DNA of 64,000 nucleotides from Chloroflexota bacterium (GTDB lineage Bacteria > Chloroflexota > Dehalococcoidia > Lucifugimonadales > UBA3495), in assembly GCA_028873965.1 (NCBI GenBank), contig JAPPMU010000024.1, positions 231,154-295,153 on the forward strand, written 5' to 3'. Made by a program: the position numbers and the translations under genes. Of this stretch, positions 1,145 to 45,587 are shown in pieces. Within the stretch, counting starts at the first letter, position 1, and each line of letters opens with the position of its first letter. Below the pieces are notes generated by a model, which ran no database searches, had not been told where the DNA came from, and saw only the letters and a program-made list of their open reading frames with translations.

Positions 1145-1438
1145 TTGAAACAGGTCGTGGAGGCGTACTTCACCGACCCGCGGCTGATGCATGGCTCGGG
1201 CAGTGCCATCGATGAGCGTTTACTGTACGTGCTGCTGGCCAACCTGCTGAATGCGGTGGGCGGCGCGCTGAGGCCCAAGGTGTTCTGCGTGCAGGACTTG
1301 GCCAACCAGGGCGCCGGTCACCCCGACTTCGGCCTGTACACCATCCGGCAGGCGCAGAAGGGCAAGGTAAAGATGGTACAGAAGCCTGAGCTCGGGGCTA
1401 TCGAGGTGAGGCTTGTGGATGGCCGCGTTTGGCGGTAA
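1145..1438 (+). pseudogene. orphan N-terminal fragment resembling the N-terminus of large SAM-dependent DNA methyltransferase / type IIG R-M enzymes
   Basis: 97-aa ORF containing ERLLYVLLANLLNAVGGALRPKVFCVQDLANQGAGHPDFGLYT...ELGAIEVR. This pattern is recalled from that enzyme family. The ORF ends abruptly at the cas3 start region and no methylase domain follows. Confidence 0.3.
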
Positions 1439-1472
1439 GGGCGCAGAAACTCATTGCCTGAGGTTTCGTAAA

Positions 1473-4115
1473 GTGCACAGACCATACACGACCCGGTTCT
1501 GGGGCAAATCGGATCGCAGCGCACCGGAGCGCATCCATCTATTGGAGCACCACCTGGCGGACGTGGGGGCGTGCTTCGAGGCGCTGGTGCAGCAGCCATT
1601 GATCCGACGCCGGCTGGCCCACACCGCAGGTTGGAACGACATTGACGACATCACGGCGGCGCGGCTTTGCGTGTTCGCCGCGCTGCATGATGTCGGCAAG
1701 GTGAACATTGGGTTCCAGGCCCAGATTTGGCGACCGGATGAATGGTCAGCAGGTCAGCGGCCTCCGGGCCGGGCCGGTCACACTCTGGATTTGACGCCGG
1801 TGTTGAACGGGGACGACCGCGCAACCTCGTCGTGGTTCTACGACGCCCTGGGCTGGTGGTGGGACGCCACCGAAATGTGGGACGACTGCGGGGGCGAAAC
1901 GGTGTGCGGCCTGCTGGTGGCCACGCTGTCGCATCATGGCACGCCGCTGCAGTTGGACAGCGGGCGCGCCGAGCATCCGCAGCTGTGGCGGCGCTACGGC
2001 GAGCTGGACCCACAGGAGCAGGTGTACCGCATCGGTCGGCTGGTCCGGGAGTGGTTCCCGGAGGCGTTCAACGAAGGTGGTCGTCCGCTGCCGTCTGCGC
2101 CGCAGTTCCAGCATCATTTCCTGGGGCTGTGCAACCTGGCGGACTGGATCGGATCCAACGAGCTGTGGTTCGACTACGTTGGCGAACCCCGAGACGGTTA
2201 CATCGACGCCTCCCGAAGCATCGCGGGGCAGGCCGTCAAAAGGGTTGGGCTGGATATATCGGAACAGCGGACGACCGTGGCGCGCTCCCGGGTTCCCGAT
2301 CTGACGGGCCTGTTCCCGCACATCGCACAGCCCAACGCCATCCAGCGGGCGGCCCACGATGCACCCATCGGCGAGCGGTTGGTCATCATCGAATCGGAGA
2401 CCGGCTCGGGCAAGACGGAGGCCGCGCTGTGGCGTTTCGCAAAGCTGTACGAGGCCGGCCTGGTGGATGGCCTGTACTTCGCGCTACCCACCCGGGCAGC
2501 GGCCAAGCAGATCTTCGACCGGGTGAATGCTTTCGTCGGAAACATGTTCCCGCCCGAAGCTCGGCCGGAGCCCGTGCTGGCGGTGCCCGGCTACATCCGA
2601 TCCGGAGATGCCCAGGGGCAGCGGCTCCAGGACTATGAGGTGTGGTGGGATGATCATGCCGTCGACGGACGACGCTGGGTGGCCGAGAGCCCCAAGCGGT
2701 TCCTCGCCGCGCAGATTGCCGTGGGCACGGTGGACCAGGCGATGCTGGGGTCGCTGACGGTGAAGAACGCTCACATGCGGGCGTCGAGCCTGGCGCGCAA
2801 CCTGCTGGTGGTGGACGAGGTTCACGCCTCAGATGCCTACATGAGCGAGGTTCTGGCCGCCGTGCTGGACGCTCACCTGGGCGCCGGCGGTTACGCGCTG
2901 CTCATGTCGGCGACGCTGGGGGCGATCGCCAGGCATCGCTGGCTGGGGCGGCCCGCCGACGCCGTTCCGACGTTGGCCGACGCCATCGATGCCCCCTATC
3001 CTGCGGTAAGTACGGCGTCGGCCATGATCGACGCCGGTGAGAATGACCGGCGCAAGGATGTGAGCATCGGCGCGGAGCCGGAGATGCGAGACTTCAACGC
3101 GGTGGCGGCTCGGGCGCTGGAAGCGGCGCAGTCCGGCGCCAAGGTGCTGGTGGTGCGCAACACGGTGGACTACGCCATCCGCACGCTGGAGGCTTTGCTG
3201 GAGACGGCTGGGCCGGAGGACGCTGACCTGCTGTTCTCCGTGGATTGCATCCCCACGCTGCACCACGGGCGTTTCGCTGCCGTTGACCGTGAGCTGCTGG
3301 ACGCGGAGATCGAAAGAAGATTGGGGCGGGGACGGCCCGACGGCGGGCTGGTGGTGGTGGGCACTCAGACGCTGGAGCAGTCCCTGGACATCGACGCCGA
3401 CCTGCTCATCACCGACCTTTGCCCCGCCGACGTGCTGCTCCAGCGCATCGGGCGACTGCATCGCCATCGACAAAACGACGCCACGCGGCCCGGCGGCTTT
3501 GACCAAGCCCGGTGCGTCGTGTTGACGCCGGGAGACGATCTGTCGTCATTGCTGTCTGCCGGCCAGAACGCCAACGGTCTGGGTCCCCACGGCGGGGTGT
3601 ACCGCAACCTGCACGTCCTGGAGGCGACCCGCCGTCTGATTGTCGAACATCCCCGGTGGCGCATACCGGACATGAACCGCGAACTGGTGGAGCGCGCCAC
3701 GCATACGCAAGCCCTGGACGCCATCACTGCGGAACTGGGCGACGCCTGGAAGGACCATGCCATCAGCACCGAGGGCGGCCACATCGCCGACGTGCAGACG
3801 GCGCGAGGGCACACCATCCGGCGGGACCGGTCTTTCTTCACGGACAACCGCGAGGTCTGCTTTCCCAGCGACGAGGAGCGCATCCGCACCCGCCTGGGCG
3901 ACGACCGGGTGGATGTAACCTTCGACCCGCCGCCGGCCAGCCCTTTCGACCGGTCGCTCAGTATTGACCGCCTGGCGATGCCGGCGTGGTGGCTGCCGGG
4001 GGTTGAGCCCTCGGAGCCGGTGCAACCGACGCCATCCGACACCGACGAGTTCGAGTTCCGCGTGGGAGACCGCCGCTTCCGCTACGACCGGCTGGGCTTG
4101 CGGCGCTTGCAATAA
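1473..4115 (+). CDS. cas3: type I-E Cas3 HD nuclease/helicase
   Basis: ORF 1413..4115. It has an FWGKS N-terminal motif, HD motifs HHLADV and LHDVGK, Walker A ESETGSGKTEAAL and a DEVH box. GTG 1473 is preferred as start because GAGG lies 9 nt upstream; ATG 1419 is also possible. Confidence 0.95.
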   Translation: MHRPYTTRFWGKSDRSAPERIHLLEHHLADVGACFEALVQQPLIRRRLAHTAGWNDIDDITAARLCVFAALHDVGKVNIGFQAQIWRPDEWSAGQRPPGRAGHTLDLTPVLNGDDRATSSWFYDALGWWWDATEMWDDCGGETVCGLLVATLSHHGTPLQLDSGRAEHPQLWRRYGELDPQEQVYRIGRLVREWFPEAFNEGGRPLPSAPQFQHHFLGLCNLADWIGSNELWFDYVGEPRDGYIDASRSIAGQAVKRVGLDISEQRTTVARSRVPDLTGLFPHIAQPNAIQRAAHDAPIGERLVIIESETGSGKTEAALWRFAKLYEAGLVDGLYFALPTRAAAKQIFDRVNAFVGNMFPPEARPEPVLAVPGYIRSGDAQGQRLQDYEVWWDDHAVDGRRWVAESPKRFLAAQIAVGTVDQAMLGSLTVKNAHMRASSLARNLLVVDEVHASDAYMSEVLAAVLDAHLGAGGYALLMSATLGAIARHRWLGRPADAVPTLADAIDAPYPAVSTASAMIDAGENDRRKDVSIGAEPEMRDFNAVAARALEAAQSGAKVLVVRNTVDYAIRTLEALLETAGPEDADLLFSVDCIPTLHHGRFAAVDRELLDAEIERRLGRGRPDGGLVVVGTQTLEQSLDIDADLLITDLCPADVLLQRIGRLHRHRQNDATRPGGFDQARCVVLTPGDDLSSLLSAGQNANGLGPHGGVYRNLHVLEATRRLIVEHPRWRIPDMNRELVERATHTQALDAITAELGDAWKDHAISTEGGHIADVQTARGHTIRRDRSFFTDNREVCFPSDEERIRTRLGDDRVDVTFDPPPASPFDRSLSIDRLAMPAWWLPGVEPSEPVQPTPSDTDEFEFRVGDRRFRYDRLGLRRLQ

Positions 4116-4171
4116 ATGGCCCGATCGGATGGATCGCAAAGCATCGAGAGCGGAATGGGCGTCCGCTCCCG

Positions 4172-4260
4172 TTGCTATCCCCGCGCGTGCGGGGGAACTG
4201 ATGAATTGGCAGACCCCATCCGAACCTACCATGGTCTACCCCAGCGGTTGCTGGGAAACG
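4172..4260 (-). CRISPR. antisense mini-CRISPR: degenerate repeat (4260-4233), 33-nt spacer (4232-4200), repeat (4199-4172); candidate crRNA-like regulatory RNA (CreR/CreA-like)
   Basis: The minus strand reads CGTTTCCCAGCAACCGCTGGGGTAGACC, then ATGGTAGGTTCGGATGGGGTCTGCCAATTCATC, then AGTTCCCCCGCACGCGCGGGGATAGCAA. Identity to the array repeat is 21/28 and 24/28. The two stem changes in the first repeat are compensatory (C-G to A-T). Repeat spacing is exactly 61 nt, as in the main array. Confidence 0.75.
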
Positions 4261-4295
4261 TGCGATTGACTAGGAAGCCGTCACCATAATACCAT

Positions 4296-4316
4296 AACTG
4301 GTACGTCCGAATGGGG
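4296..4316 (+). promoter_or_regulatory. putative Cascade binding site: partial protospacer for the mini-CRISPR spacer with AA PAM, inside a divergent promoter region
   Basis: AA then CTGGTACGTCCGAATGGGG matches spacer positions 2-6, 8-9, 11-12 and 14-19, with nothing beyond. Nearby promoter-like boxes are plus-strand TTGACT 4266-4271 with TAATAC 4287-4292, and a minus-strand extended -10 TGGTATTAT (4294-4286). Confidence 0.5.
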
Positions 4317-4449
4317 GTGTTGGGGGAAAGGTTGAAATTTGCCGTGGTCCGTGTTACGGTCCTTAAAGCTTCACCGCCGGGAAGGCACCCCGGCAGTGAT
4401 CGAAACTCTCCGCAATCCAGTGGGGCACACTAAATTAAGGAAGATTTCA

Positions 4450-4617
4450 GTGAGAATCATATCAGCCCTTAACACGACTGCCAACCTCTGCGATTACTGT
4501 GACAGGCTCGCAACCGCCGATTGTGAGCTTTGCGGTTATCGGATTTGCGATTGGTGCAAACACCCGGGGACGTCCCGATCTGGAGACTGCTGGATCTGCT
4601 ATCCGTGGTGTCTGTGA
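4450..4617 (+). CDS. small Cys-rich ORF (four CxxC pairs, B-box/zinc-ribbon-like); coding status uncertain
   Basis: GTG 4450 is preceded by AAGGAA. Product is VRIISALNTTANLCDYCDRLATADCELCGYRICDWCKHPGTSRSGDCWICYPWCL. It lies in lower-GC DNA and is rich in codons that are rare for a high-GC genome (AGA, ATA, TCA, CTT). A longer version from TTG 4339 is in the track. Confidence 0.3.
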   Translation: MRIISALNTTANLCDYCDRLATADCELCGYRICDWCKHPGTSRSGDCWICYPWCL

Positions 4618-4750
4618 AGACAAGCGAACTTTTGATGCGAAATCTTGTGCGAAATTTCTTGACAAACCATCACATCGCCTCGTAGTCTCATACGAGCGAT
4701 TGTTCCGCTCGCATGATCGTCTATCAGGCGCGACCGACGAGGCTGACGAT

Positions 4751-6331
4751 ATGCTCAACATTCTAACCGAACCACTGATTGGCATGACCACGGCAGAAGG
4801 CACCCGACCCGTATCCCTGCCGGAGGTGTACGCAGTGCTGATGGCCGACGAGGTGGAGGCGTTTCCGGCGCTGCGTCCACACCAGCGCCACGCTTGGCAC
4901 GCTTCTCTGGTGCAGTTGGCAGCTATGGCAATGCACCGGGCTGGGGTCGCTGAGCCGCCGGCGGATGAGGTGGAATGGGCGGGGCTGATACGGGGGTTGA
5001 CGGCGGATTGGACGGATGATGAGCCGTGGCAGTTGGTGGTTGATGACATTACCAAGCCAGCGTTTATGCAGCCGCCGGCTCGCTCCGCCGACAAACTGGC
5101 GGAGTACAAAAGCCGGGTGGAAACTGCTGATGAGCTGGACATGCTCGTTACATCCAAGAACCACGATTTGAAAGCGACTGTCGGGGCCCAGTCTGGCGTA
5201 GATGACTGGATATACGCGCTGATTTCATTACAGACGATGGAGGGTTTCGGCGGGGCCGGCAACTACGGCATCTCCCGTATGAATGGTGGTTTGGGCAGCC
5301 GTCCAGCGTTTTCCATGGCCCCAACCGGCAGGGTCGGAGCTCACGTCAAGCGGGACATTCGAGCGTTGCTAGACAACTATCCGACAACCGGCGGCGGTCA
5401 TCGCCTGTTGTGGCTGCTGTCGTGGGACGGAACCGCAAGTGAAAGACTGCTACCGAACCAACTGGCACCGCACTACATAGAAGTTTGCCGGCGCGTCCGG
5501 CTGCGCTCCGATGCTGACGGCCGGTTGTACGCTGTCCGAACCAGCACCAAAGCGGCTCGTATTGAGGGTAAAGATCTCAAAGGCCGGACCGGTGATCCCT
5601 GGACGCCGCATAACCCGAACCGGGATGGGTTACCGCTGACTATATCGCGTGGCGGCTTCAACTACAAACGGGTAACGGAATACCTTTTTGACTGGCAAAA
5701 TCCCGACCTGCTGAAAGCTACGCCTGACGAACAACGCTCGAATGACCCTGATGAAACGATGCAGTTGGTAGCTCGCGCCATGGTGCGGGGTCAAGGCAAG
5801 ACTGAAGGCTACTACGAGCGCGTCATCCCCATTCGGAGCAAGAAAGCGTTGCGCGGAATGACGCGGCGCCCAGGCAGTGACAGCACGGAAGACTTGGGTA
5901 ACTTGGCCCAAGAACGCATTAAAGAAGTTGGCATCGTGCAAGGTATCTTGCGCCATGCCATCGCAACGTTCCTGGCGCGCGGTGAATCCAGAGAGACCAG
6001 CCCGGAGCAGCGGGCTTTGGCCAATCCATGGGCAAATCGTTTGGACGAAATCGTTGACGCCGATTTCTTTGATGCCTTGCAAGTTGAGTTTGAACACAAC
6101 GACCGCGCCGAGCGCGAGCGTGTCCGAAATGAGTGGCTGATGAACGGCAGGGATGGCGTCGTTGACCACGCTCGCAACATCCTGGATGAGGCGGTGGATT
6201 CTCTGCCTTGCCCAGCCGTTCACCGTTATCGAGCCCGCGAAAACGCGGAAGGGCTGTTTGAAGGACGAATACGCAGAAGCGGAGGGTTGCCGTTTCTGTT
6301 TGACAGAACGAATTTTGAGGTGACGAAATGA
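4751..6331 (+). CDS. cse1: type I-E Cascade large subunit Cse1/Cas8e
   Basis: Starts MLNILTEPLIGMTTAEGTRPVSLPEVYAVLMADEVEAFPALRPHQRHAWHASLVQL, a typical CasA N-terminus. Length is 526 aa. It occupies the position after cas3 and its stop overlaps the cse2 ATG. Confidence 0.93.
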   Translation: MLNILTEPLIGMTTAEGTRPVSLPEVYAVLMADEVEAFPALRPHQRHAWHASLVQLAAMAMHRAGVAEPPADEVEWAGLIRGLTADWTDDEPWQLVVDDITKPAFMQPPARSADKLAEYKSRVETADELDMLVTSKNHDLKATVGAQSGVDDWIYALISLQTMEGFGGAGNYGISRMNGGLGSRPAFSMAPTGRVGAHVKRDIRALLDNYPTTGGGHRLLWLLSWDGTASERLLPNQLAPHYIEVCRRVRLRSDADGRLYAVRTSTKAARIEGKDLKGRTGDPWTPHNPNRDGLPLTISRGGFNYKRVTEYLFDWQNPDLLKATPDEQRSNDPDETMQLVARAMVRGQGKTEGYYERVIPIRSKKALRGMTRRPGSDSTEDLGNLAQERIKEVGIVQGILRHAIATFLARGESRETSPEQRALANPWANRLDEIVDADFFDALQVEFEHNDRAERERVRNEWLMNGRDGVVDHARNILDEAVDSLPCPAVHRYRARENAEGLFEGRIRRSGGLPFLFDRTNFEVTK

Positions 6332-7194
6332 CTACCCCAACGCAGACTGACCCAGAATTGGCTAGGCGTAGCTATGACTATCTTCACCCACAGTACCGCG
6401 CCGCTCGCACAGAAGCTCTTGCCCGTTCGAAGGGACAGTGCCAGTTCTGTGGTGAACGACCCGCCGCTGAAGCCCACCACTGGGCGACGGACTATCCTTC
6501 TGAAGAGGAGATGACAGCTGATGATCTGACCGGCCTGTGCCTCTTCTGCCATACGATGGCAACAACCATTCGGAGATTTCGTGGCGACCCTTGGGAACTA
6601 TTGGAAAGGTTCAGAGAACAACAGAGGAAGTCGCCGAATGATTCCCAGCCTTACCAGTTTCAAGGCGGAGTCGCCGTGCCTATTGCGAGGGATATCGCAA
6701 TTCTTTCCACCCATAAGAGGGGAGATTTTGCCGGACTGCGCCGTATGGACCCGAACGAACCTGACACGGCAGCCTTCTGGCGGTTGATGGCCAGCGAAGG
6801 GTTGCTGGGCAACCCCGACGCAGAACGCAAGTGGGCGCTCATTATGTGCGGCATTGCCCTGATGACACGCACTGCCGCCGATGACAACCCTTTCAACCGT
6901 TCCGCTCACAACGGGAGTATGCCGGTGGGCCGGGCGCTCTACGAAAGCGGATACAGCGAAACACGCTTCAACCGCCTGCTCACCGCGCGGGACGATATGC
7001 TTCGCGTCCTGCTGACCCGGATGTTCCGGATGCTGGCCGCCGAGCAGGCGACCTTCGACTGGCGGGAGATGGCTGCGTTCATCCTGAACGATGGCTTCAA
7101 CGACGAACGCGCCGAAGAGGGCCGTCGCCGCCTGGCCCGAGCCTACTACCGGGCCGAGCGGCGCGGTTCCCAACAATCAGAAACCCAGCAATGA
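6328..7194 (+). CDS. cse2: Cse2/Cas11 small subunit with N-terminal HNH nuclease domain
   Basis: ATGA overlap with the cse1 stop. Residues 20-85 form an HNH motif: YRAARTEALARSKGQCQFCGERPAAEAHHW...DDLTGLCLFCH. Residues about 110-288 are Cse2-like (GLRRMDPNEPDTAAFWRLM..., ...RLLTARDDMLRVLLTRMFRML..., ARAYYRAE). At 288 aa it is longer than the roughly 160-200 aa usual for Cse2. Confidence 0.88.
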   Translation: MTTPTQTDPELARRSYDYLHPQYRAARTEALARSKGQCQFCGERPAAEAHHWATDYPSEEEMTADDLTGLCLFCHTMATTIRRFRGDPWELLERFREQQRKSPNDSQPYQFQGGVAVPIARDIAILSTHKRGDFAGLRRMDPNEPDTAAFWRLMASEGLLGNPDAERKWALIMCGIALMTRTAADDNPFNRSAHNGSMPVGRALYESGYSETRFNRLLTARDDMLRVLLTRMFRMLAAEQATFDWREMAAFILNDGFNDERAEEGRRRLARAYYRAERRGSQQSETQQ

Positions 7195-8387
7195 CCAACG
7201 GGAGAATGACGATGACCACCCCCAGATTTCTGCAAATTCACACCCTGCACTCGTACCCGGCCGCCCTGCTGAACCGGGACGACTCGGGCCTGGCCAAGCG
7301 GATGCCTTTCGGCGGGGCTACCCGCACCCGCATCTCATCCCAGTGCCTCAAGCGGCATTGGCGGGTGGCCCAGGACGAGTTCGCGCTGCGCGGCATCGCC
7401 GGAACTACCGCGGCCCTGCGCTCACGGAACGTCGTCGAGCGCAAGGTAATACAGCCGTTGCGCAAAGCCAATGAAATCGACAAGGAGATCCTTGACGCGG
7501 TGGAAAACGCATTCAACATCGGCGTGTACGGCAGCAGCGGCACCACCGAATCGGGACGACAACCGCTGCTCCTGGGCCTGCCCGAAGTGGAGTATCTGCA
7601 ACAGAAAGCCTCCGCCATTTGTACGGAACACCCCGACGACGCCAAAGCCGCCGGCGATGCCGCCACGTTGCTGTTCAGCGCGCGGCGCGGCGAGGGCAAT
7701 AACTTCGCCGCCTTCCGCGACGCCGCGCGGTTGCCCGGCGGTCTGGAAGGCGCGCTGTTCGGGCGGATGGTTACGTCGGACCCGGGGGCCAACATCGAGG
7801 CGGCCATCCACGTGGCCCACGCCTTCACCGTTCACGCCGAGGAGAGCGAGAGCGACTATTTCTCCGTGGTCGATGATCTCCAGCGGGAGGACGAGGACGC
7901 CGGCGCCGCCCACATCGGCGACATGGAGCTGACGGCGGCGTTGGCCTACGGCTATGTCGTCGTGGACGTGCCGGGGCTGGTGTCCAACCTGGAGGGCTGC
8001 GACGCCGGCGAGTGGGACAGTGCCGACCGAGAGCTGGCCGGCAAGGTGGTGGAGCACCTGATCCATCTGATTGCCACCGTGTCGCCAGGGGCCAAACTTG
8101 GGTCCACTGCTCCCTATAGTTATGCCGACTTGATGGTCATTGAGGCCGGCAGCCGCCAGCCGCGCAGCCTGGCCAACGCCTATCGCCGACCGGTTCCGGC
8201 GCGCGTCGATGCCGCCACCGACGCGCTGGCCGCCTGCCTGGGCAAGCTGGATGACGCCTATGGCGGAAAGGAAATCCGCCGCGTGATGTCGGTGGAGGAC
8301 TGCGACATCCCCCGGGCGGAGCGCCTCTGCCTGGACGATCTGGCGACGTGGGCCGCAGAAGCCGTGAGGAACGGTGAAGCGAAATGA
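7191..8387 (+). CDS. cas7: type I-E Cascade backbone subunit Cas7e (Cse4/CasC)
   Basis: Contains RFLQIHTLHSYPAALLNRDDSGLAKRMPFGGATRTRISSQCLKRHWR, the canonical CasC N-terminus. ATGA overlap with cse2. Confidence 0.95.
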   Translation: MTNGRMTMTTPRFLQIHTLHSYPAALLNRDDSGLAKRMPFGGATRTRISSQCLKRHWRVAQDEFALRGIAGTTAALRSRNVVERKVIQPLRKANEIDKEILDAVENAFNIGVYGSSGTTESGRQPLLLGLPEVEYLQQKASAICTEHPDDAKAAGDAATLLFSARRGEGNNFAAFRDAARLPGGLEGALFGRMVTSDPGANIEAAIHVAHAFTVHAEESESDYFSVVDDLQREDEDAGAAHIGDMELTAALAYGYVVVDVPGLVSNLEGCDAGEWDSADRELAGKVVEHLIHLIATVSPGAKLGSTAPYSYADLMVIEAGSRQPRSLANAYRRPVPARVDAATDALAACLGKLDDAYGGKEIRRVMSVEDCDIPRAERLCLDDLATWAAEAVRNGEAK

Positions 8388-9136
8388 CCATGCGGCACCT
8401 GATCATCAACCTGGAAGCGCCGCTGATGGCATTCGGCGGCGAGACGATTGATAATCTCGGCGTGATCAGGCCGTTCCCGGCCGCGTCGATGATTACGGGC
8501 CTGTTCGCGAACGCCCTGGGCTGGCGGCGCATCGAACGGCAGCGACACCAGGAATTGCAGGACCGGATGGTCTTCGCCGCCCGCATCGACCGGGAGCCGG
8601 CCGGCGGCGTCCGCATGACAGACTTTCAGACGGCCCAACTGGCCGCCAACGACCGGGGCTGGACCACCCGGGGCGCTCCGGAAGGCCGCGCCGGAGGGGC
8701 CAACACCTACCTGGCTCCGCACCTGCGCTACCGCGACTACTACGCTGACATGCGCGTCACGGTGGCGCTCCGGCTGGAGCCGGCGGCCGACGCCCCGACC
8801 CTGGATGATCTGGCCAACGCTCTACAGCAACCCGCCCGGCCCCTGTTCATCGGACGGAAACCATGCCTGCCATCGGAGCCCTTGTACGGGGACTTCGCCC
8901 AGGGGGACACGGCGCTGGCCGCGCTGCTCAGCGTGGCCCCGGCCGATAATGGACGCGGCGCTCTCTGCCGTCTCCAGTGGCCCCGGGGCGAGGGCGTGGC
9001 CGACGTCGACGCCAGCCGGACGCGCCTGATCACCGACCAGCGCAACTGGAGTTCGTCGGCTCTGCACGGCGGCGGCCGCTGGGTCTGCGAGGGGAGCGTT
9101 GACCGCAGCCGTTGGACGGAGGTGGCAGCATCATGA
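8384..9136 (+). CDS. cas5: type I-E Cas5e (CasD)
   Basis: Starts MTMRHLIINLEAPLMAFGGETIDNLGVIRPFPAASMITGLFANALGWRR, a typical Cas5e N-terminus. Overlaps the cas7 stop. Confidence 0.95.
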   Translation: MTMRHLIINLEAPLMAFGGETIDNLGVIRPFPAASMITGLFANALGWRRIERQRHQELQDRMVFAARIDREPAGGVRMTDFQTAQLAANDRGWTTRGAPEGRAGGANTYLAPHLRYRDYYADMRVTVALRLEPAADAPTLDDLANALQQPARPLFIGRKPCLPSEPLYGDFAQGDTALAALLSVAPADNGRGALCRLQWPRGEGVADVDASRTRLITDQRNWSSSALHGGGRWVCEGSVDRSRWTEVAAS

Positions 9137-9867
9137 CGGAACCGTTGCAGATGATCCGTGCTGAAATCAACGTGCGGGACTTCCAGCGCTGGATGGGTAT
9201 GCGCCGGCTGCAGGACCCGGACCATGCCATGCACTGCTTCTTGGTTGAGTCGTTCGGCAGCGAACTTGCGCCCAAGCCCTTCCGCGCCATCTTCCCGCGG
9301 GGTGGGTCCCACGGGTGCTTGTATGGCTACGGGACGGCGGATGCAGAAACGTTGCGCGAAGCCGCCGGCCTGTACGCCGACCCGTTGCAGTCGCGCATCA
9401 TCCCGCCTCACGGCATCGACAGCAAACCCATGCCGGCCGAGTGGACCGCCGGCAAACGGCTGGGCTTCGAGGTTCGCGTGAGGCCCGTTGTCCGGCGCAC
9501 GGACAAGGCGGAATGCCGGCCGGGCCGCGAGTGGGACGCCTTCCAGCTGGAGGCCATCCAGCATCCCAAGGGCGAGATGCCCCGCAGCCGCGAGGAAGTT
9601 TATACCGACTGGCTGCGCCGGCAATTTCAGATTAGAGGAGGCGCAGCGCTGGAGTCGGCGACACTGGTGTCCTTCCAGCGCACCCGCGCGGTCCGCCGTC
9701 TGCGCGGCGGATACAGCGAGGGACCCGACGCTCTGATGCGCGGCGTGCTGGAAATCACCGACGGTACTGCCTTCGGCAAACTGCTTGCCGGCGGCGTGGG
9801 ACGCCACCGGGCCTACGGGTACGGAATGCTCCTGCTGCGCCCCGCCGGCCGCCAGCCCGCATCCTGA
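9133..9867 (+). CDS. cas6e: type I-E Cas6e (Cse3/CasE) crRNA endoribonuclease
   Basis: ATG 9133 overlaps the cas5 TGA. The C-terminal glycine-rich motif GVLEITDGTAFGKLLAGGVGRHRAYGYGMLLLRP parallels E. coli CasE GIGPAKSMGCGLLSLAP. Gene order supports the call. Confidence 0.9.
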   Translation: MTEPLQMIRAEINVRDFQRWMGMRRLQDPDHAMHCFLVESFGSELAPKPFRAIFPRGGSHGCLYGYGTADAETLREAAGLYADPLQSRIIPPHGIDSKPMPAEWTAGKRLGFEVRVRPVVRRTDKAECRPGREWDAFQLEAIQHPKGEMPRSREEVYTDWLRRQFQIRGGAALESATLVSFQRTRAVRRLRGGYSEGPDALMRGVLEITDGTAFGKLLAGGVGRHRAYGYGMLLLRPAGRQPAS

Positions 9868-9935
9868 CCCCGTGGATCACCGCACCTTAACAACTGAATA
9901 CCTATCCCCGTCATGGGGGAACGGAGGCGACGCGA

Positions 9936-10913: not shown

Positions 10914-11218
10914 CGGTAGTGGTAACCGTGAACGTGGAGGGCCGGTACCGGGGGTTCCTGGCCTCGGTGATGCTGGAAATCGCGCCGGGAGTGTACACGT
11001 CGCCGGAGATGACCAGCGGCATCAGGGATCGGATCTGGGACGTGCTGGTCCGATGGCACGGAGAACTGGGCAACGGATCGATCGTGATGACTTGGCGGGA
11101 CCCCGCGGCGCCGGGCCAGCAGCAGATCCGGAGCCTGGGCGATCCGCCCAAGGAGATCGTGGATGCCGACGGCGTGTATTTGGTAAGATACGGTGAGGCC
11201 CGCACTCTTGGCGAATGA
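10910..11218 (+). CDS. cas2: type I-E Cas2
   Basis: 102 aa starting MTVVVTVNVEGRYRGFLASVMLEIAPGVYTSPEMTSGIRDRIWD, which resembles E. coli Cas2. Overlaps the cas1 stop. Confidence 0.95.
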   Translation: MTVVVTVNVEGRYRGFLASVMLEIAPGVYTSPEMTSGIRDRIWDVLVRWHGELGNGSIVMTWRDPAAPGQQQIRSLGDPPKEIVDADGVYLVRYGEARTLGE

Positions 11219-11235
11219 AATTCGATAGATATTAT
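11208..11235 (+). promoter_or_regulatory. candidate CRISPR leader promoter (-35 TTGGCG, 16-nt spacer, -10 TATTAT)
   Basis: Boxes read directly at 11208-11213 and 11230-11235. This is the only AT-rich stretch, and it sits between the cas2 3' end and the first repeat at 11248. Confidence 0.35.
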
Positions 11236-11247
11236 CAGCCGCCAAGA

Positions 11248-14200
11248 GGTTCCCCCGCACGCGCGGGGATAGACCCACTTTGCGTTGGAGCAAAACACGT
11301 TGCTCGACGGTTCCCCCGCACGCGCGGGGATAGACCGCAGTTGCGGTAGATGTTGCGCTTGACCAGGTTGGTTCCCCCGCACGCGCGGGGATAGACCCGC
11401 CGCCGCCGGAGTACCAGCCGCAGTCAGGGCGGTTCCCCCGCACGCGCGGGGATAGACCCATCAGCCGGTCAAGAGAGACGCCACTGTTGCCGGTTCCCCC
11501 GCACGCGCGGGGATAGACCGGCTACCCGGGCGCAACGGGATTGGCTGATGCGGGTTCCCCCGCACGCGCGGGGATAGACCTTCCAGCGGCGCATCATCCG
11601 GTTCCAAACCCACGGTTCCCCCGCACGCGCGGGGATAGACCGTCGCGACTTTGGAGCGGGCATTCCTTCACGACGGTTCCCCCGCACGCGCGGGGATAGA
11701 CCCTCGGTTCCCGCAGCCCGGTGACGACTGGTTCAGGTTCCCCCGCACGCGCGGGGATAGACCTTGTGCCATTTTTCGTAATGAGGGTGAGCGATTGGTT
11801 CCCCCGCACGCGCGGGGATAGACCCGATGACGACGATGACTATTCGGGCATCTACTCGGTTCCCCCGCACGCGCGGGGATAGACCCCATCCACAGCGTTT
11901 GCCGCAGTTCGCCGGATGGGTTCCCCCGCACGCGCGGGGATAGACCCTGCCCGATTTCGTTGCGGGTCCGCTCCGGGGTGGTTCCCCCGCACGCGCGGGG
12001 ATAGACCGGTGTTGGCGGGCGCCTGTCCAAACGGGCGTGAGGTTCCCCCGCACGCGCGGGGATAGACCCCTGCGCAGCACGGTGGAAACGCAGCGGCTGC
12101 GGGTTCCCCCGCACGCGCGGGGATAGACCCGATGCCAAGTCGCCGCCGGGATTGCGCGGATAGGTTCCCCCGCACGCGCGGGGATAGACCTCTTGGCGGG
12201 CATGGTGAGATTGTAGCGGCACAGGTTCCCCCGCACGCGCGGGGATAGACCCGGTGAATACATACCAGAGATGCTATGAGCGCAGGTTCCCCCGCACGCG
12301 CGGGGATAGACCACGTGTCGGGGGGCAGTTCTATGTGCGGGGGTGGGTTCCCCCGCACGCGCGGGGATAGACCCTTCGTGCCATTTAGCGAGTAGACCCT
12401 GACCTCGGTTCCCCCGCACGCGCGGGGATAGACCTGGTCATACGGACGATGCGGGAATCGCCGAGGCGGTTCCCCCGCACGCGCGGGGATAGACCGATGT
12501 TGAGCAGCTTCCACCCGGCGCCGCCGGCGGTTCCCCCGCACGCGCGGGGATAGACCGATGACCGGGCCGCGCATCCCCGGCGGGAGTTTGGTTCCCCCGC
12601 ACGCGCGGGGATAGACCCTGCGCATTGTCCGCATTGTGGCCGGCACGCTGGGTTCCCCCGCACGCGCGGGGATAGACCGTCCCTAGCAGTTTGAGGCTCC
12701 AAAAAGAACTCGGTTCCCCCGCACGCGCGGGGATAGACCGGCGTGGTTTCCCGGATTGTCGCGCCCCCGGGGGGTTCCCCCGCACGCGCGGGGATAGACC
12801 CTCTCCGACACGCCCACCGCCCACGAGGAAGTCGGTTCCCCCGCACGCGCGGGGATAGACCCCGCATCAGATCCCAGGGTCTGACACGCAAGGGGGTTCC
12901 CCCGCACGCGCGGGGATAGACCGTGGCGCACCAGCCCTTGCCCCATGAGCGTTTGGGTTCCCCCGCACGCGCGGGGATAGACCCTGCGCGTACTGTGCTC
13001 ACAATTGAGCCTGATTGGTTCCCCCGCACGCGCGGGGATAGACCGTACAGGGTATCAGATAGCACAATACGCGACGCGGTTCCCCCGCACGCGCGGGGAT
13101 AGACCCGATGATGACAGTGGATACAACGGTACGGCAAAGGTTCCCCCGCACGCGCGGGGATAGACCTCACTTTCGGGCGGTATGAAAAGGGTTACGTGGG
13201 GTTCCCCCGCACGCGCGGGGATAGACCTTTGCCTTGCCAGCCTTTCCGCTATCAGGTCGGGGTTCCCCCGCACGCGCGGGGATAGACCTTCCATATCCGC
13301 TCCCGATGTTGATGTTGGTGTGGTTCCCCCGCACGCGCGGGGATAGACCGCCCTTGTACGTTCCTGTCTCTACCCTCATCATGGTTCCCCCGCACGCGCG
13401 GGGATAGACCCCATCTATAGCCCCCTGTACGCGCCTTCACCGAGGTTCCCCCGCACGCGCGGGGATAGACCCCGCATCGTAACCGATTTCGGCGGCATGA
13501 CCCCGGTTCCCCCGCACGCGCGGGGATAGACCCCAACGTGGTCATCCTCGCCCTGGCCGGCGGAGGGTTCCCCCGCACGCGCGGGGATAGACCCGCTTCA
13601 CCTACATGGGAGACGACGACAATGAAGGTTCCCCCGCACGCGCGGGGATAGACCGTCCACCGGGGCCGCGTACAGCATGGTAAGACAGGTTCCCCCGCAC
13701 GCGCGGGGATAGACCTCACTATGATTGGGCCGATGGGCACTGGGATAGGGTTCCCCCGCACGCGCGGGGATAGACCTACGCAGGATATACTCGTTGCGTT
13801 GAGGGACTGGGTTCCCCCGCACGCGCGGGGATAGACCGTCATTCCCACGGCCACGTCGCCCTCCGCCTTCGGTTCCCCCGCACGCGCGGGGATAGACCCT
13901 CCTCGCTGGGCCGGCGGTCCGAGAGGGCGAAGGTTCCCCCGCACGCGCGGGGATAGACCGCGGCAAGGGGGAAAGTGGCGCATCATTGCTTCGGTTCCCC
14001 CGCACGCGCGGGGATAGACCTCAACCCGCGTCGTCCGGCCCACCGTGCTCCGCGGTTCCCCCGCACGCGCGGGGATAGACCGGCCCTATCGGATGGGTCA
14101 AGTTGGGCGTCGCCGGTTCCCCCGCACGCGCGGGGATAGACCCCACTCGCCCCGCGTGACGCAGTGGACGTGGGAGGTTCCCCCGCACGCGCGGGGATAG

Positions 14201-17200
14201 ACCCATAAAGAATATTATTTCACCCAACCGTGCCCGGGTTCCCCCGCACGCGCGGGGATAGACCCCTGGCCGCCGTAACCTACGAGAGCCTGGGCGAGGT
14301 TCCCCCGCACGCGCGGGGATAGACCGTACCAGCGGGGGCGGGCCTCGGTGTTGGGCGGGGTTCCCCCGCACGCGCGGGGATAGACCCACCCCCGCACATA
14401 GAACTGCCCCCCGACACGTGGTTCCCCCGCACGCGCGGGGATAGACCCTGTTGGTGGGCGCCGGGGACGCGAGATCGCCAGGTTCCCCCGCACGCGCGGG
14501 GATAGACCGGATATGAGCAGGTTCATTATCGACATGGTTTCGGTTCCCCCGCACGCGCGGGGATAGACCGAGGCGGCCACGTCGTCCAGGTTGGTCCAAC
14601 GGGGTTCCCCCGCACGCGCGGGGATAGACCCTGTCCAATTTTCGGATGCAGCAGGGTTCAGGGGGTTCCCCCGCACGCGCGGGGATAGACCCATCAGTCA
14701 TCTGGACACGTCGTTTCGGTCTGGGGTTCCCCCGCACGCGCGGGGATAGACCGTCCTGAACCCAGGCGCGCCGCAGGGTCCGCAGGGTTCCCCCGCACGC
14801 GCGGGGATAGACCCTCTTCTATAAGAGGTTCGAGCGCCTCTTCATAGGTTCCCCCGCACGCGCGGGGATAGACCTCATATTCTGATTGATAGGGGCGGCC
14901 TCTTTACGGTTCCCCCGCACGCGCGGGGATAGACCCTATTACAAGCAGTCCCTTGCCAGCATTGGCGAGGTTCCCCCGCACGCGCGGGGATAGACCCGTC
15001 CAAAAAAATAACACCTAGGTGTTACAGACGGTTCCCCCGCACGCGCGGGGATAGACCTTTGTCGGCAAAGACTTTATAGAGGAAAGACTGGGTTCCCCCG
15101 CACGCGCGGGGATAGACCGATCAGGCCATTGCCCAATACTGGTCGGGGAACGGTTCCCCCGCACGCGCGGGGATAGACCGGCGGTTCGGGCAGCAGCCCC
15201 CCGTCCGATGTTGGTTCCCCCGCACGCGCGGGGATAGACCCCACCAACCAGCGGGCCGTCCGCGCGTCGCTGCGGTTCCCCCGCACGCGCGGGGATAGAC
15301 CCGACCCAGACGTTGCGGGGACGTCCATAGGCCCGGTTCCCCCGCACGCGCGGGGATAGACCGGAAGCCAGGTTGTACGGATGGGCCATCGTGGAGGTTC
15401 CCCCGCACGCGCGGGGATAGACCCCGAGGCCGAGGCCTATCTCAGGAGGTGACCAAGGTTCCCCCGCACGCGCGGGGATAGACCCTTCAGCAAAGCCGGC
15501 TTTGGCTTCATCACCCGGGTTCCCCCGCACGCGCGGGGATAGACCGGACCGGAGCGGTGAGCCGGAGATGCGCTACGCGGTTCCCCCGCACGCGCGGGGA
15601 TAGACCCCCCGCGACCAGCTGGACTACGAGAACAAGGAGGGTTCCCCCGCACGCGCGGGGATAGACCCCGCTCCATCGCCTCGGCCGCGGCGCCCGTGCC
15701 GGTTCCCCCGCACGCGCGGGGATAGACCCGGTGAATACATACCAGAGATGCTATGAGCGCAGGTTCCCCCGCACGCGCGGGGATAGACCCGCCGTTGCCC
15801 ATAATGTTCCAGGCTTGCCGTGGGTTCCCCCGCACGCGCGGGGATAGACCTTGTGTGGCTGTTCAACCCGGACGGCGCGGCTTGGTTCCCCCGCACGCGC
15901 GGGGATAGACCGTTGCACGATGATACCGCAAAGTGGGTGGACGTGGTTCCCCCGCACGCGCGGGGATAGACCCGCGGTTGACGAATTCCTGCGCCAACCC
16001 CCGTTGGTTCCCCCGCACGCGCGGGGATAGACCGCCGGCCCTCCAACCTGGGCTCGACCATACCCGGGTTCCCCCGCACGCGCGGGGATAGACCCCAATA
16101 TGACCGGATGGGACGCGACAACAGCATGGTTCCCCCGCACGCGCGGGGATAGACCCGCCAACGCCAACGGCGCGGTGGGTATAGCGCTGGTTCCCCCGCA
16201 CGCGCGGGGATAGACCGTACATGGCGTGGGTGGAGTCGACGATCGACGAGGTTCCCCCGCACGCGCGGGGATAGACCGGTGCCAAACACCAGCAAGTGCG
16301 CGGCGAAGGCGGTTCCCCCGCACGCGCGGGGATAGACCCCACGTTCACGATGGTGCGGTTATCCTGCAAGAGGTTCCCCCGCACGCGCGGGGATAGACCC
16401 TGCCCGATCTCATTGCGGGTCCGCTCCGGGGTGGTTCCCCCGCACGCGCGGGGATAGACCCGGTGTGAGGCCCTGCGAGTGTCCGTAATGGATGGTTCCC
16501 CCGCACGCGCGGGGATAGACCCATCTCATAGGCGTTGTGCGGACCCTCCGGCGAGGTTCCCCCGCACGCGCGGGGATAGACCCCAATAACCGCGCAGTAC
16601 CCAGCTCTCCGCGTAGGTTCCCCCGCACGCGCGGGGATAGACCCTCGGCCGCGGTGATTCCATCTTCCCGCCAGGCGGTTCCCCCGCACGCGCGGGGATA
16701 GACCTTGGACGCCGTCCTCGACGTACGCCTGCTCGGCGGTTCCCCCGCACGCGCGGGGATAGACCCCTGATCTTGAACTCCGGCGCCGGAGGCGAGCGGG
16801 TTCCCCCGCACGCGCGGGGATAGACCGCATATGAGCGTTGCCTACCCACATTGCCAGCCGGTTCCCCCGCACGCGCGGGGATAGACCCGAAACGGCCAAT
16901 GTATCTGAGCGTACCCGACTGGTTCCCCCGCACGCGCGGGGATAGACCCGCCATGATTTACGGAATGCCCTATCAGCCGCCGGTTCCCCCGCACGCGCGG
17001 GGATAGACCGATGGTACAAATATTCAACTATGAGGTGAATATGGTTCCCCCGCACGCGCGGGGATAGACCCTGAGACGGGCAAGGTCAGCGCGGCGCAAG
17101 CCGGGTTCCCCCGCACGCGCGGGGATAGACCCGTCTAGCGGAGATAGGTTGACACCGGGTATCTGGTTCCCCCGCACGCGCGGGGATAGACCCTGAAGGG

Positions 17201-17802
17201 AGTACGCAATCCGACGGATGCTACTGGTTCCCCCGCACGCGCGGGGATAGACCCCTGTATCATTATCATATCCTCCGTAAAGCCCAGGTTCCCCCGCACG
17301 CGCGGGGATAGACCTTTCTTGAGCCCGGCGACTCCCTGAAGGGGCGGGGTTCCCCCGCACGCGCGGGGATAGACCGGCACAATCCGCGACGCCGTTTTCG
17401 GTGAAGGCGGTTCCCCCGCACGCGCGGGGATAGACCCATCCACTGGGGGGCAAAAACTGGGTGAAAGTAGGTTCCCCCGCACGCGCGGGGATAGACCCTT
17501 AGCCACTCATGTGGCATTCACTTACAGGGCGGTTCCCCCGCACGCGCGGGGATAGACCCCTTCGGCTCATTTTCACCTTGCCGTCGCTGCCGGTTCCCCC
17601 GCACGCGCGGGGATAGACCTTCGTGGACAATGGCCCGCTGCCCTAGAGGGGTGGTTCCCCCGCACGCGCGGGGATAGACGTTTTGCACAGTCAGCGCAAG
17701 ATCGGCGGTTGGTGGTTCCCCCGCACGCGCGGGGATAGACCGCATCGGAGTTACCATATCTCCGAACTCTATTCGGTTCCCCCGCACGCGCGGGGATAGA
17801 CC
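11248..17802 (+). CRISPR. type I-E CRISPR array, block 1: 108 repeats of GGTTCCCCCGCACGCGCGGGGATAGACC with 33-nt spacers
   Basis: First repeat at 11248 and last at 17775, a distance of 6527 = 107 x 61. Repeat orientation matches E. coli GTTCCCCGCGCCAGCGGGGATAAACC, so the array is transcribed on the plus strand from the cas2 side. The repeat at 17653 ends in G instead of C. Confidence 0.97.
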
Positions 17803-17811
17803 CCTTGCCCC

Positions 17812-18039
17812 ATGACTACGCTTTTTGTTCAAGAATGGGATAGGCTAGACCATGTGGCCGCGGCTGAATACGGCCAGGTTAGCGACGCTGCGCTCCGCAC
17901 TCTGATTTGGAGCAATCCCGCGCTGCCATTCGGGATCAATTTCCCGCCGTCAACGATCCTGAACGTTCCCGCCGATCCGATCTCGGTTCGGTATTCAGCG
18001 GACGTTGACCCGACGTCGAAGGCTGCGCTTGACGGGTGA
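17812..18039 (+). CDS. phage tail protein X-like (P2 gpX-like) ORF
   Basis: 75 aa. LFVQEWDRLDHVAAAEYGQVSDAALRTLIWSNPALPFGINFPPSTILNVPAD fits the recalled tail-X pattern (GDTLD..YG......ANP.L.....LP.G..I.LP). Confidence 0.45.
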   Translation: MTTLFVQEWDRLDHVAAAEYGQVSDAALRTLIWSNPALPFGINFPPSTILNVPADPISVRYSADVDPTSKAALDG

Positions 18040-18044
18040 ACGAA

Positions 18045-18161
18045 ATGGATTGCAAATGCAAATGCGGTTGCCGATTGCCTCTATACCCGTGGGATTATGC
18101 GTCGGGTATCTGCGAAAACTGCGCCGAACGGTGTCAGAATTCGTTGGGCAATGGGCGATAG
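18045..18161 (+). CDS. 38-aa Cys-rich ORF
   Basis: Own translation: MDCKCKCGCRLPLYPWDYASGICENCAERCQNSLGNGR. Too short for the supplied track. Confidence 0.2.
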   Translation: MDCKCKCGCRLPLYPWDYASGICENCAERCQNSLGNGR

Positions 18162-18265
18162 GTTCTTTCCAGGCCGCCGCCGGCCCCTTGCGGCTCAACG
18201 GCGCACGAGTCGGCAAGTGCGGTGATGCCAAGTATTATCAAATGCGATACGGTGAATGATCCGAT

Positions 18266-18491
18266 ATGCCGCGTATCACGCAAAAGGAAATCGCGGGCGT
18301 GGTTGGGGTTTCGCAGGCGACCGTTTCCGGTTGGCAGTTGGGGCGCAACCCGTCATGGATCGACGTTGCTGCAAAGGTAGTCAGCACGGATCGCCTGTAC
18401 GGTGAACCCGCCATGCGTGACCTGATCCTGCGGGTCGTCGCGGAGCGGGATCCGAACGCAACCCCGCTTGGCAGTCGCGGCCGTTGGGAGT
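18266..18491 (+). pseudogene. XRE/Cro-like HTH gene truncated at the junction with the CRISPR repeat
   Basis: MPRITQKEIAGVVGVSQATVSGWQLGRNP is a classic HTH. The ORF has no stop of its own and reads into repeat and spacer sequence (track ORF 18266..18577). Confidence 0.5.
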
Positions 18492-40052: not shown

Positions 40053-40328
40053 ATGGATCCGCAAACTTACGCGCTGATTGGCGTATCCGTTACGCTTGGG
40101 CTGTTTCTGCTGGGCGGTGCCTTCGGGCTCGGCAGGCTGTTCCAGCGTGTAGAGTCACTGGACCGGCGCGTGGATACGCTGTCGGACGAAGTCAGGCAAC
40201 TGACTACCGAAGTTCGGAAACTGACCGGCGAAGTTCGACGAACCAACGAGACCGTCGTGGCTTTGGCGAACCACCGGCATGACGTCGATGGCAACACTGT
40301 GTTCACCTTGCCAGGCGGCGGCGACTAG
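40053..40328 (+). CDS. small membrane-anchored coiled-coil protein
   Basis: An N-terminal TM segment (ALIGVSVTLGLFLLGGAFGL) is followed by heptad repeats. Confidence 0.4.
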   Translation: MDPQTYALIGVSVTLGLFLLGGAFGLGRLFQRVESLDRRVDTLSDEVRQLTTEVRKLTGEVRRTNETVVALANHRHDVDGNTVFTLPGGGD

Positions 40329-45568: not shown

Positions 45569-45587
45569 ACGAAAGAGTGAAGTCCAA

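Follow-up and report, generated by a model that had tools for sequence, protein, structure and literature searches.

A probable antisense CreR/CreA-type mini-CRISPR between cas3 and cas8e of a Chloroflexota type I-E locus, with a partial target at a predicted promoter

What is an inverted pair of CRISPR repeats doing between cas3 and cas8e? The question is raised by 64,000 nucleotides of contig JAPPMU010000024.1 from a Chloroflexota bacterium (hereafter the window; coordinates without a locus number refer to it), whose plus strand carries a complete type I-E locus with cas3, cas8e, cse2, cas7, cas5e, cas6e, cas1 and cas2, ending at 11218. The 635-nt spacer between cas3 and cas8e holds two repeat-like sequences, psiR1 and psiR2, on either side of a spacer-like segment, psiS. 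The unit is a new example of a mini-CRISPR class already described for type I-E, and we put at roughly 85% the probability that it is a Cascade-guiding regulatory element of the CreR/CreA type, that is, a gene for a CRISPR RNA (crRNA)-like RNA. Its parts, together with the site that psiS partly matches and the flanking protospacer-adjacent motif (PAM), are as follows.

4233 to 4260, minus strand: psiR1, the degenerate first repeat, CGTTTCCCAGCAACCGCTGGGGTAGACC
4200 to 4231, minus strand: psiS, the 32-nt spacer-like segment, TGGTAGGTTCGGATGGGGTCTGCCAATTCATC, whose first 18 nt (5') match the target
4172 to 4199, minus strand: psiR2, the second repeat, AGTTCCCCCGCACGCGCGGGGATAGCAA
4179 to 4239, minus strand: predicted mature 61-nt crRNA-like RNA, made up of an 8-nt handle GUAGACCA, the 32-nt psiS and a 21-nt 3' hairpin
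4296 to 4298, plus strand: AAC, the PAM of the partial target
4299 to 4316, plus strand: partial protospacer, TGGTACGTCCGAATGGGG, which differs from psiS at positions 6, 9 and 12 only

The array repeat of the locus, GGTTCCCCCGCACGCGCGGGGATAGACC, occurs in 140 copies with a strict 61-nt period. psiR1 is identical to it at 21 of 28 positions and forms the hairpin CCCAGC-AACC-GCTGGG, followed by the 5' handle GTAGACC(A), with nucleotide 4232 as the 29th base. The substitutions C9>A and G18>T are a compensatory pair, and the 6-bp stem is retained. psiR2 is identical at 24 of 28 positions, the differences being position 1 (A for G) and the last three (26-28), and its Cas6e-type hairpin is intact. 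The distance between psiR1 and psiR2 is 61 nt, as in the array, and corresponds to a 29-nt repeat plus a 32-nt spacer. The unit is antisense to the cas genes, and its orientation implies transcription towards the 3' end of cas3. On re-reading the sequence, the description of psiR1, the repeat distance and the orientation are as the initial annotation had given them; psiR2 has the identity claimed for it but is not degenerate in its last 3 nt only, and the 33-nt spacer placed at 4232-4200 is present but shortens to 32 nt (4231-4200), since 4232 belongs to the repeat.

Cas6e of the Escherichia coli type I-E system cleaves after the stem of the repeat, and the ends of the predicted 61-nt RNA are set from this known cleavage site. 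Both the handle TAGACC of psiR1 and the hairpin of psiR2, the two repeat-derived ends of such an RNA, are intact in the window. At this locus a covariance model built for the entire unit gives 67.3 bits; no Rfam family matches within 3900-4800. The fold of the whole 121-nt precursor is not more stable than that of shuffled sequences (z = -0.47), and only the component hairpins are informative.

To what would such an RNA direct Cascade? The 5' part of psiS matches the plus strand just beyond psiR1 in runs of five, two, two and six positions separated by single mismatches, with no identity past position 18. This amounts to 15 of 18 positions, or 14 of the 15 that remain among positions 1-18 when the flipped-out ones are set aside. 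The match is not due to chance. None of 200 shuffled psiS sequences reached the observed score in the 1.5-kb region, and the site is the single best non-self match to psiS on either strand of the 64-kb window, the runners-up reaching 12 of 15 and having no PAM. The analytic expectation for at least 14 of 15 anywhere in the window, on both strands, is ~5e-3, falling to ~3e-4 with an AA flank. The mismatch positions, the loss of identity beyond position 18 and the judgement that the match is not accidental all agree with the initial annotation, which had put the target at 4298-4316 after an AA; the site itself is real, but its PAM is AAC at 4296-4298 and the protospacer begins at 4299. AAC is plausibly a PAM in use here, because C is the commonest 29th base after the array repeats (C 80, G 39, T 20, A 1; n = 140).

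The same arrangement was sought in related loci, 80 of them from species-representative genomes collected with a Cas8e homologue profile and six from metagenome contigs. All come from uncultivated organisms (metagenome-assembled genomes or contigs) of Dehalococcoidia, other Chloroflexota, Caldilineaceae, Binatia and a few other groups. A simple scan found repeat-like 28-mers within 1.5 kb upstream of cas8e in ~50 of the 80 loci, all on the minus strand, and by the covariance model at least 54 of 83 loci have the antisense unit upstream of cas8e.

Across 48 of these units the two repeats have decayed in opposite ways. Positions 18-28 of psiR1 (the stem's 3' arm plus the handle ATAGACC) are conserved at 0.77-1.0, compared with 0.17-0.77 for positions 1-17, whereas in psiR2 positions 2-21 are conserved at 0.83-1.0 and positions 26-28 at 0.15-0.27. 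These best-conserved segments are, as the initial annotation had proposed, the parts that would survive in a mature crRNA, and they are the ones that an RNA processed by Cas6e and loaded into Cascade would need. The opposite decay is typical of CreA and CreR, for which it is a diagnostic asymmetry. The stem of psiR1 has been maintained through substitution as well: over 40 aligned sequences (window and relatives) 81.7% of cells are paired and 26 are compensatory, spread over all six pairs, and neither any of 500 shuffles nor any slid register came close.

The targets of the 48 units were located by comparing the first 18 nt of psiS with both strands of the upstream region, using no PAM and ignoring positions 6, 12 and 18 in the score. 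The best match lies on the cas8e strand in 46 of the 48 loci, and in 45 of these 46 it begins 2-107 nt beyond the 5' end of psiR1. The exception, L061, was a mis-picked unit; re-analysis there gave a 15-nt psiS match flanked by AAC. All 46 targets carry an AA flank (AAT 28, AAC 15, AAA 3). Identity between psiS and target is 0.91-1.0 at positions 1-5, 0.28 at position 6, 0.76-1.0 at positions 7-11, 0.20 at position 12, 0.67-0.85 at positions 13-17 and 0.30 at position 18, and reaches background from about position 19. We considered whether the dips at 6, 12 and 18 were an artefact of scoring and rejected this, because plain 18-nt scoring chooses the same site in 41 of the 46 loci and the pattern is therefore not circular.

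psiS varies widely among the loci, and the targets vary along with it. In L081, whose Cas8e is 88% identical to that of the window, a homologous psiS/target pair has changed from T:T to C:C at position 8 and from G:G to A:A at position 11; in L084, also with a homologous pair, position 6 is exchanged between spacer and target. In this comparison of related loci, of the kind that the initial annotation had called for, the pairs co-vary with an AA-N PAM kept throughout. Natural sequence differences here spell out the rule by which type I Cascade pairs, and the 46 independent promoter targets record with unusual clarity, over evolution, how Cascade reads DNA, with three 5-nt segments of near-complete identity. 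At the self-targets the third PAM base (T 28, C 15, A 3, G 0) has a different distribution from that of the 29th repeat base in the arrays of the window (chi-square p = 4e-11), though different loci are being compared here and AT-rich promoters alone may be the cause.

Taken together, the unit has what marks CreR and CreA at the sequence level, namely flanking repeats at array spacing, asymmetric degeneration and a PAM-flanked match confined to the 5' part of psiS. The recurrence of the unit in relatives, the compensatory hairpin and the co-varying AA-N-flanked targets strongly support the CreR/CreA-like reading of the initial annotation.

psiS has further properties of its own. Its length, not counting the 29th base, is 20/21, 26, 32 or 38 nt in 52 of 53 units, with p ~2e-24 against a uniform spread over 20-38 when only the 46 units that lie exactly on 20, 26, 32 or 38 are counted; these 6-nt steps would fit the one Cas7 subunit per 6 nt. 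The internal hairpin of the window psiS has z = -2.58 and is equalled by 5 of 200 dinucleotide shuffles. All 20 psiS sequences tested gave negative z against such shuffles (mean -2.0); for the window's 138 genuine spacers the mean is +0.22. Among psiS sequences of the 32-nt class, the target-matching half finds its complement in the other, 3' half, which does not match the target. One idea is that a self-complementary psiS is a loading handicap, such that only surplus Cascade would be turned into a repressor.

Could the unit simply be an ordinary tiny array, or the decayed end of an inverted one, whose single defence spacer matches the neighbouring site by coincidence? The canonical 61-nt repeat spacing is what such an array would show, and in L061 a unit of this kind heads a 12-repeat array of the same orientation. 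Against it, repeat decay is ordered and conserved over dozens of diverged loci, psiS is homologous among relatives rather than hypervariable, the target co-varies with it and has a PAM in every case, and psiS folds strongly on itself, as the window's real spacers do not. The search of viral sequences proposed in the initial annotation was also carried out: no protospacer of psiS was found among 2.9 million viral contigs, even with mismatches allowed at every sixth position. The unit has neither the near-identical repeats nor the hypervariable spacers of a canonical array, and we regard this explanation as effectively refuted.

A different explanation would make the hairpins and palindromes other signals, such as a terminator of cas3, an operator for a protein or a structure in a 5' untranslated region (UTR), with the likeness to repeats acquired by recombination with the array. 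GC-rich hairpins do stand directly past the cas3 stop codon, one of them as listed here, and palindromes within psiS could be operators.

4148 to 4168, no strand assigned: GC-rich hairpin with a 7-bp stem, GAGCGGA-N7-TCCGCTC, past the stop codon of cas3 and before psiR2

This hairpin has no U-tract and the terminator scan made no call there; it may possibly be a bidirectional terminator. For the unit itself, an account of this kind is highly improbable. The best-conserved part of psiR1 is the unpaired handle ATAGACC, for which a terminator or operator has no need, and neither would need the distance between hairpins to be quantised in 6-nt steps or a PAM-flanked partial copy of psiS whose identity falls to chance exactly at positions 6, 12 and 18.

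If the unit is a CreR/CreA-type mini-CRISPR, the position of its target with respect to promoters and genes becomes central. The relevant features are these.

4266 to 4295, plus strand: sigma-70-type promoter predicted from consensus only, with -35 TTGACT (4266-4271), 18 nt and -10 TACCAT (4290-4295)
4286 to 4294, minus strand: extended -10-like sequence TGGTATTAT, a weak candidate for the promoter of the mini-CRISPR
4450 to 4617, plus strand: small open reading frame (ORF) of 55 aa with a GTG start and the ribosome-binding site AAGGAAG (4437-4443), the first gene downstream of the targeted promoter
4751 to 9867, plus strand: Cascade operon cas8e-cse2-cas7-cas5e-cas6e, with Pfam matches for cse2, cas7, cas5 and cas6e; presumed to supply both the regulated genes and the effector
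4751 to 6331, plus strand: cas8e, whose homologues carry PF09481

The predicted plus-strand promoter faces the small ORF and cas8e. The PAM begins directly after its -10, at 4296, and the protospacer would occupy roughly +1 to +20. Most related loci have, by consensus only, a TTGACA-like hexamer beside the 5' end of psiR1 and a -10-like hexamer ~17 nt further on, just before the PAM. A CreR target would lie in the promoter of effector cas genes and a CreA target in that of a toxin gene; the promoter beside the target here is a predicted one, whose geometry recurs in relatives. TTGACT stands as the initial annotation had it, but the scan prefers TACCAT to the TAATAC given there as the -10; the minus-strand extended -10 at 4294-4286 is present in the sequence as stated. 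The -35 and spacer of that candidate minus-strand promoter would fall under the footprint of Cascade, and AT-rich -10-like hexamers adjoin the reverse-complemented PAM in many related loci.

From these elements a mechanism can be proposed. The unit would be transcribed from the minus strand, divergently from the Cascade operon, and Cas6e would cut after the hairpins of psiR1 and psiR2, as their conservation suggests, to release a 61-nt RNA in which psiS is framed by a 5' handle and a 3' hairpin that are both normal. Cascade would assemble on this RNA, recognise AAC at 4296-4298 and pair with positions 1-5, 7-8, 10-11 and 13-18 of 4299-4316. Since the site is immediately downstream of the -10, bound Cascade would block initiation or promoter escape, by analogy with CreA and CreR. 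Since pairing ends after ~18 nt, repression would occur without cutting, the R-loop being presumably unable to lock and recruit Cas3, as in the experiments on CreA and CreR. Cascade and the small ORF would in this way come under negative feedback, which would ease once the ~140 array crRNAs titrate Cascade away or anti-CRISPRs disable it. Bound Cascade would also overlap the likely upstream promoter region of the mini-CRISPR, and the RNA may limit its own synthesis.

The gene at 4450-4617 is a real one. It begins 151 bp past the start of the protospacer, and its product belongs to a family of ~55-65 aa with the conserved pattern C-D-x2-C...C-x2-C-x4-C-x2-[CH]-x-H-P-x-T-P...C-x2-3-C, which is present in 10 related loci and each time downstream of the target. 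The protein is probably a cross-brace zinc finger of the B-box/PHD-like kind: Pfam zf-B_box matches five of the 10 family members weakly, and an AlphaFold2 (AF2) model from a 4-sequence alignment has a pLDDT (predicted local distance difference test) score of 70. The model has no significant match in the PDB, the best hits (E = 0.43) being generic PHD, B-box and RING fingers. Word-indexed homology searches with the ORF and with the family alignment gave no matches. An exhaustive phmmer search of 1.8 billion representatives gave five, and each of the four convincing ones sits in a cas3-cas8e spacer behind a mini-CRISPR and its target; the fifth (369 aa, E = 9e-4) was judged from its sequence alone to be an unrelated RING-like protein. 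No relatives were found in phage records or viral contigs, where the apparent matches were chance ones to alternative frames of tape-measure genes, and the ORF has no similarity to known toxin, defence or phage families.

Seeded hidden Markov model searches showed that the same slot elsewhere holds unrelated families, a coiled-coil one in 12 loci and a beta-rich one in eight, neither with a PHROGs, PADLOC or Pfam match. L001 and L083 have a phage-type HNH ORF there, to which a helix-turn-helix (HTH) is added in L001, and L061 has a ribbon-helix-helix (RHH)-like ORF. In ~20 related loci there is no ORF, and the target stands directly before cas8e.

Several observations weigh against the proposal that the unit represses Cascade through this promoter. 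Every functional step, in the window as in each relative, is deduced from sequence, and the window promoters are known only as matches to a consensus. A true mismatch occurs at position 9, within the second pairing segment. Upstream of psiR1, the loci as a whole show no clear positional peak for a -10 of the creR promoter. A second, strong promoter-like site on the minus strand (4484-4456; TTGGCA, 17 nt, TATGAT, with an upstream TG and 10 of 12 matches) is contained in the 5' end of the small ORF and is directed towards the target and mini-CRISPR; it could serve creR as an alternative promoter or have arisen by chance. Between the target and the start of cas8e there are 452 nt and an ORF, so direct control of cas8e assumes read-through; the terminator scan predicted no terminator between the plus-strand promoter and cas8e, with the proviso that intrinsic terminators are poorly modelled in such genomes. 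Finally, L082 has its target, a coiled-coil ORF and its mini-CRISPR in one orientation, opposite to that of cas8e. This layout suggests that the small ORF rather than cas8e may be the primary regulated gene, and that its control can be the primary function.

The last point leads to a reading that overlaps with the one preferred here and differs in the gene regulated. The unit might be the CreA antitoxin of a guard module like CreTA or CrePA, silencing the zinc-finger ORF as a toxin or back-up effector whose product would be released upon loss of Cascade or its block by an anti-CRISPR. In the window and in at least 30 related loci, the target is followed first by a conserved small ORF, at least three unrelated families occupy the one slot, resembling in this the diverse CreT and CreP toxins, and L082, with its ORF and mini-CRISPR downstream of the target in the same transcript, resembles an autoregulated toxin-antitoxin operon. 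CrePA of Acinetobacter baylyi has the same layout (10.1101/2024.01.05.574328), and the cas3-cas8e spacer of relatives also carries RHH/ParE and HicB modules. On the other side, toxicity is a conjecture, with no match to a toxin, defence or phage family and no informative fold match. In most loci the ORF shares a transcription unit with cas8e, at times overlapping its start; its expression would then go along with that of Cascade, which fits poorly with a toxin. The ~20 loci with mini-CRISPR and target but no ORF indicate that the element functions without cargo and that addiction, or abortive infection when anti-CRISPRs act, is not its sole logic, and the zinc-finger family has no relatives outside the slot, unlike the phage-derived CreP. 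We regard a guard module as possible but doubtful.

A broader proposal is more tentative still. The Cascade-repressed promoter may be a slot for interchangeable small proteins (zinc finger, coiled-coil, beta-rich, HNH) that act as guarded toxins or back-up effectors, and the RNA may be purpose-built, with shortened Cascades and a self-complementary psiS; we think this unlikely. If it were true, spacers shortened in 6-nt steps would give shortened Cascades unable to license Cas3, and the slot proteins would be a protein-toxin CreTA in type I-E, where a 2026 preprint lists protein-toxin CreTA only for I-B and I-F. The slot ORF families, the 6-nt length classes and the psiS hairpin are not mentioned in those passages of the mini-array literature that a search by term retrieved. 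As leads, the small-protein families confined to the slot, the psiS lengths of 20/21, 26, 32 and 38 nt and the internal hairpin would be useful for understanding CRISPR homeostasis and for designing non-cutting Cascade repressors, if they tune Cascade loading or guard against anti-CRISPRs.

How does the CreR/CreA-type unit of the window compare with systems already described? The closest is CreR of the Salmonella enterica type I-E system, which has been shown experimentally to repress the casA promoter through a 15-nt match flanked by AAG and to respond to crRNA load and to AcrIE8 (Liu et al., 10.1101/2023.03.10.532045). The subtype and the position in the cas3-cas8e (casA) spacer are the same, both units have two degenerate repeats that keep the 8-nt 5' handle of psiR1 and the 3' hairpin of psiR2, and both have a psiS whose seed-proximal part agrees in sequence with a PAM-flanked site within or beside the casA promoter. 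Autorepression of Cascade that senses crRNA load and anti-CRISPRs is likewise predicted, here from sequence alone. The two differ in that they share no sequence relationship and belong to different phyla, in the PAM (AAC in the window and AAT, AAC or AAA in relatives, with AAG at none of the 46 tabulated targets), in the match, which is broken at positions 6, 9 and 12 rather than consecutive, and in the conserved small protein gene that stands in the window between target and cas8e.

More generally, the computational survey by Shmakov et al. 2023 describes regulatory mini-arrays in ~19% of bacterial I-E loci, between cas3 and cas8 and opposite to cas3 (10.1101/2023.03.03.530964; PMC10120712), each with two repeat-like sequences around a spacer partly complementary to the cas8 promoter. 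It notes the sixth-position mismatches and terms the spacer region a gene-shuffling hotspot (10.1101/2023.03.03.530964). The window unit resembles the mini-arrays of that account in structure, position, orientation and the mismatch at every sixth position. The cargo controlled by mini-arrays is there mainly that of I-D loci with toxin-antitoxin genes and regulators, whereas the slot of the window holds a small zinc-finger ORF in a I-E locus.

In CreTA of the Haloarcula hispanica I-B system (Li et al. 2021, Science, as cited elsewhere), the toxin is an RNA that sequesters tRNA; in CrePA of the A. baylyi I-F system, a KilAC-domain toxin ORF lies ~120 bp past the CreA target in the cas3-csy1 spacer (10.1101/2024.01.05.574328). 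In both, a mini-CRISPR RNA and Cascade or Csy repress a neighbouring gene through a partial PAM-flanked match, as we infer for the window, and as in CrePA a small ORF follows shortly past the target. Their toxins are proven and their subtypes are other ones, whereas the window ORF is a zinc finger with no toxin homology that appears to be co-transcribed with cas8e. Viral Cracr RNAs also redirect Cascade to cas or creT promoters, some with shortened spacers and fewer Cas7-type subunits (10.1101/2024.10.29.618823). The RNA proposed here would likewise be crRNA-like and direct Cascade to a cas promoter; unlike the Cracr RNAs, which serve phages and plasmids against defence, its gene is chromosomal, lies inside the cas locus and is conserved with it. 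The window and its relatives would extend crRNA-like self-regulation of CRISPR systems to a large uncultivated group that is largely of Chloroflexota type and, to judge by the names of the records, may come from marine hosts.

Two further features of the locus frame the unit.

1413 to 4115, plus strand: cas3, upstream of the mini-CRISPR, with Cas3_HD, DEAD and Cas3 C-terminal Pfam matches
11248 to 20410, plus strand: two canonical arrays (11248-17802 and 18492-20410) with 140 repeats, which define the repeat sequence and supply competing crRNAs

The first array repeat follows the cas2 stop codon after only 29 nt (11216-11248), so a conventional AT-rich leader has to extend into cas2 or else be very short. 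The 689 bp between the arrays (17803-18491) contain a 38-aa Cys-rich ORF (~18046-18162, MDCKCKCGCRLPLYPWDYASGICENCAERCQ...) and an HTH-like ORF that starts near 18267 and runs into the first repeat of the second array, whose first two repeats end in GAGC and not GACC.

In relatives, the cas3-cas8e spacer is a hotspot for cargo, with RHH/ParE toxin-antitoxin pairs, HicB-like antitoxins and a PaREP1 gene. Such cargo lies between cas3 and the mini-CRISPR in L081 (1729-2233), L082 (1201-1705), L084 (545-1346) and L083 (1269-1532) and is also present in L004, L022, L044, L047, L054, L064 and L079; the window has none. In L061, a CreR-like unit heads the 12-repeat array, which is divergent from cas8e (2782-3540, minus strand), and the 15-nt AAC-flanked psiS match at 3584 is followed by a 78-aa RHH-like ORF (3584-3855). 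The zinc-finger ORF of L084 has lost its start codon and has a frameshift at a G run, through decay or assembly error. This locus, the closest relative, aligns with the window over the ~130 nt from target to zinc-finger ORF (4317-4449 against 1528-1660 of L084), a stretch in which the GC hairpin GCCGGG...CCCGGC (~4367-4396) and the block CTCTCCGCAATCCAGTGGGGCACAC are kept and which may be a structured 5' UTR.

Repeat-like elements also occur within the operons. In L083 (87% Cas8e identity), complete plus-strand repeat-spacer-repeat units occupy the cas7-cas5 and cas5-cas6e gaps (6355-6443 and 7181-7270). The cas6e-cas1 gap of many related loci contains a conserved motif, GCACCTTAACAAYTGAAT, and, 10-25 nt beyond it, a solitary plus-strand repeat-like hairpin (GTTCCCCCGCACACGCGGGG), as in L063 (8969-9008), L021 (9020-9060), L017 (8983-9021), L056 (9321-9360), L058 (9022-9038), L014 (8974-8989) and L079 (9020-9035). 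In the corresponding gap of the window (9880-9920) the motif is at 9880-9897, and the hairpin at 9901-9920, TATCCCCGTCATGGGGGAAC, looks like a shortened inverted repeat. Cas6e might cut the operon mRNA in two at this hairpin, which may otherwise be a further standalone repeat unit. Elsewhere in the window, Tandem Repeats Finder reported a 415-bp unit in 1.9 copies with 78% matches at 45173-45951, resembling a duplicated coding segment, and 21-nt short tandem repeats at 63417-63492 and 40187-40237.

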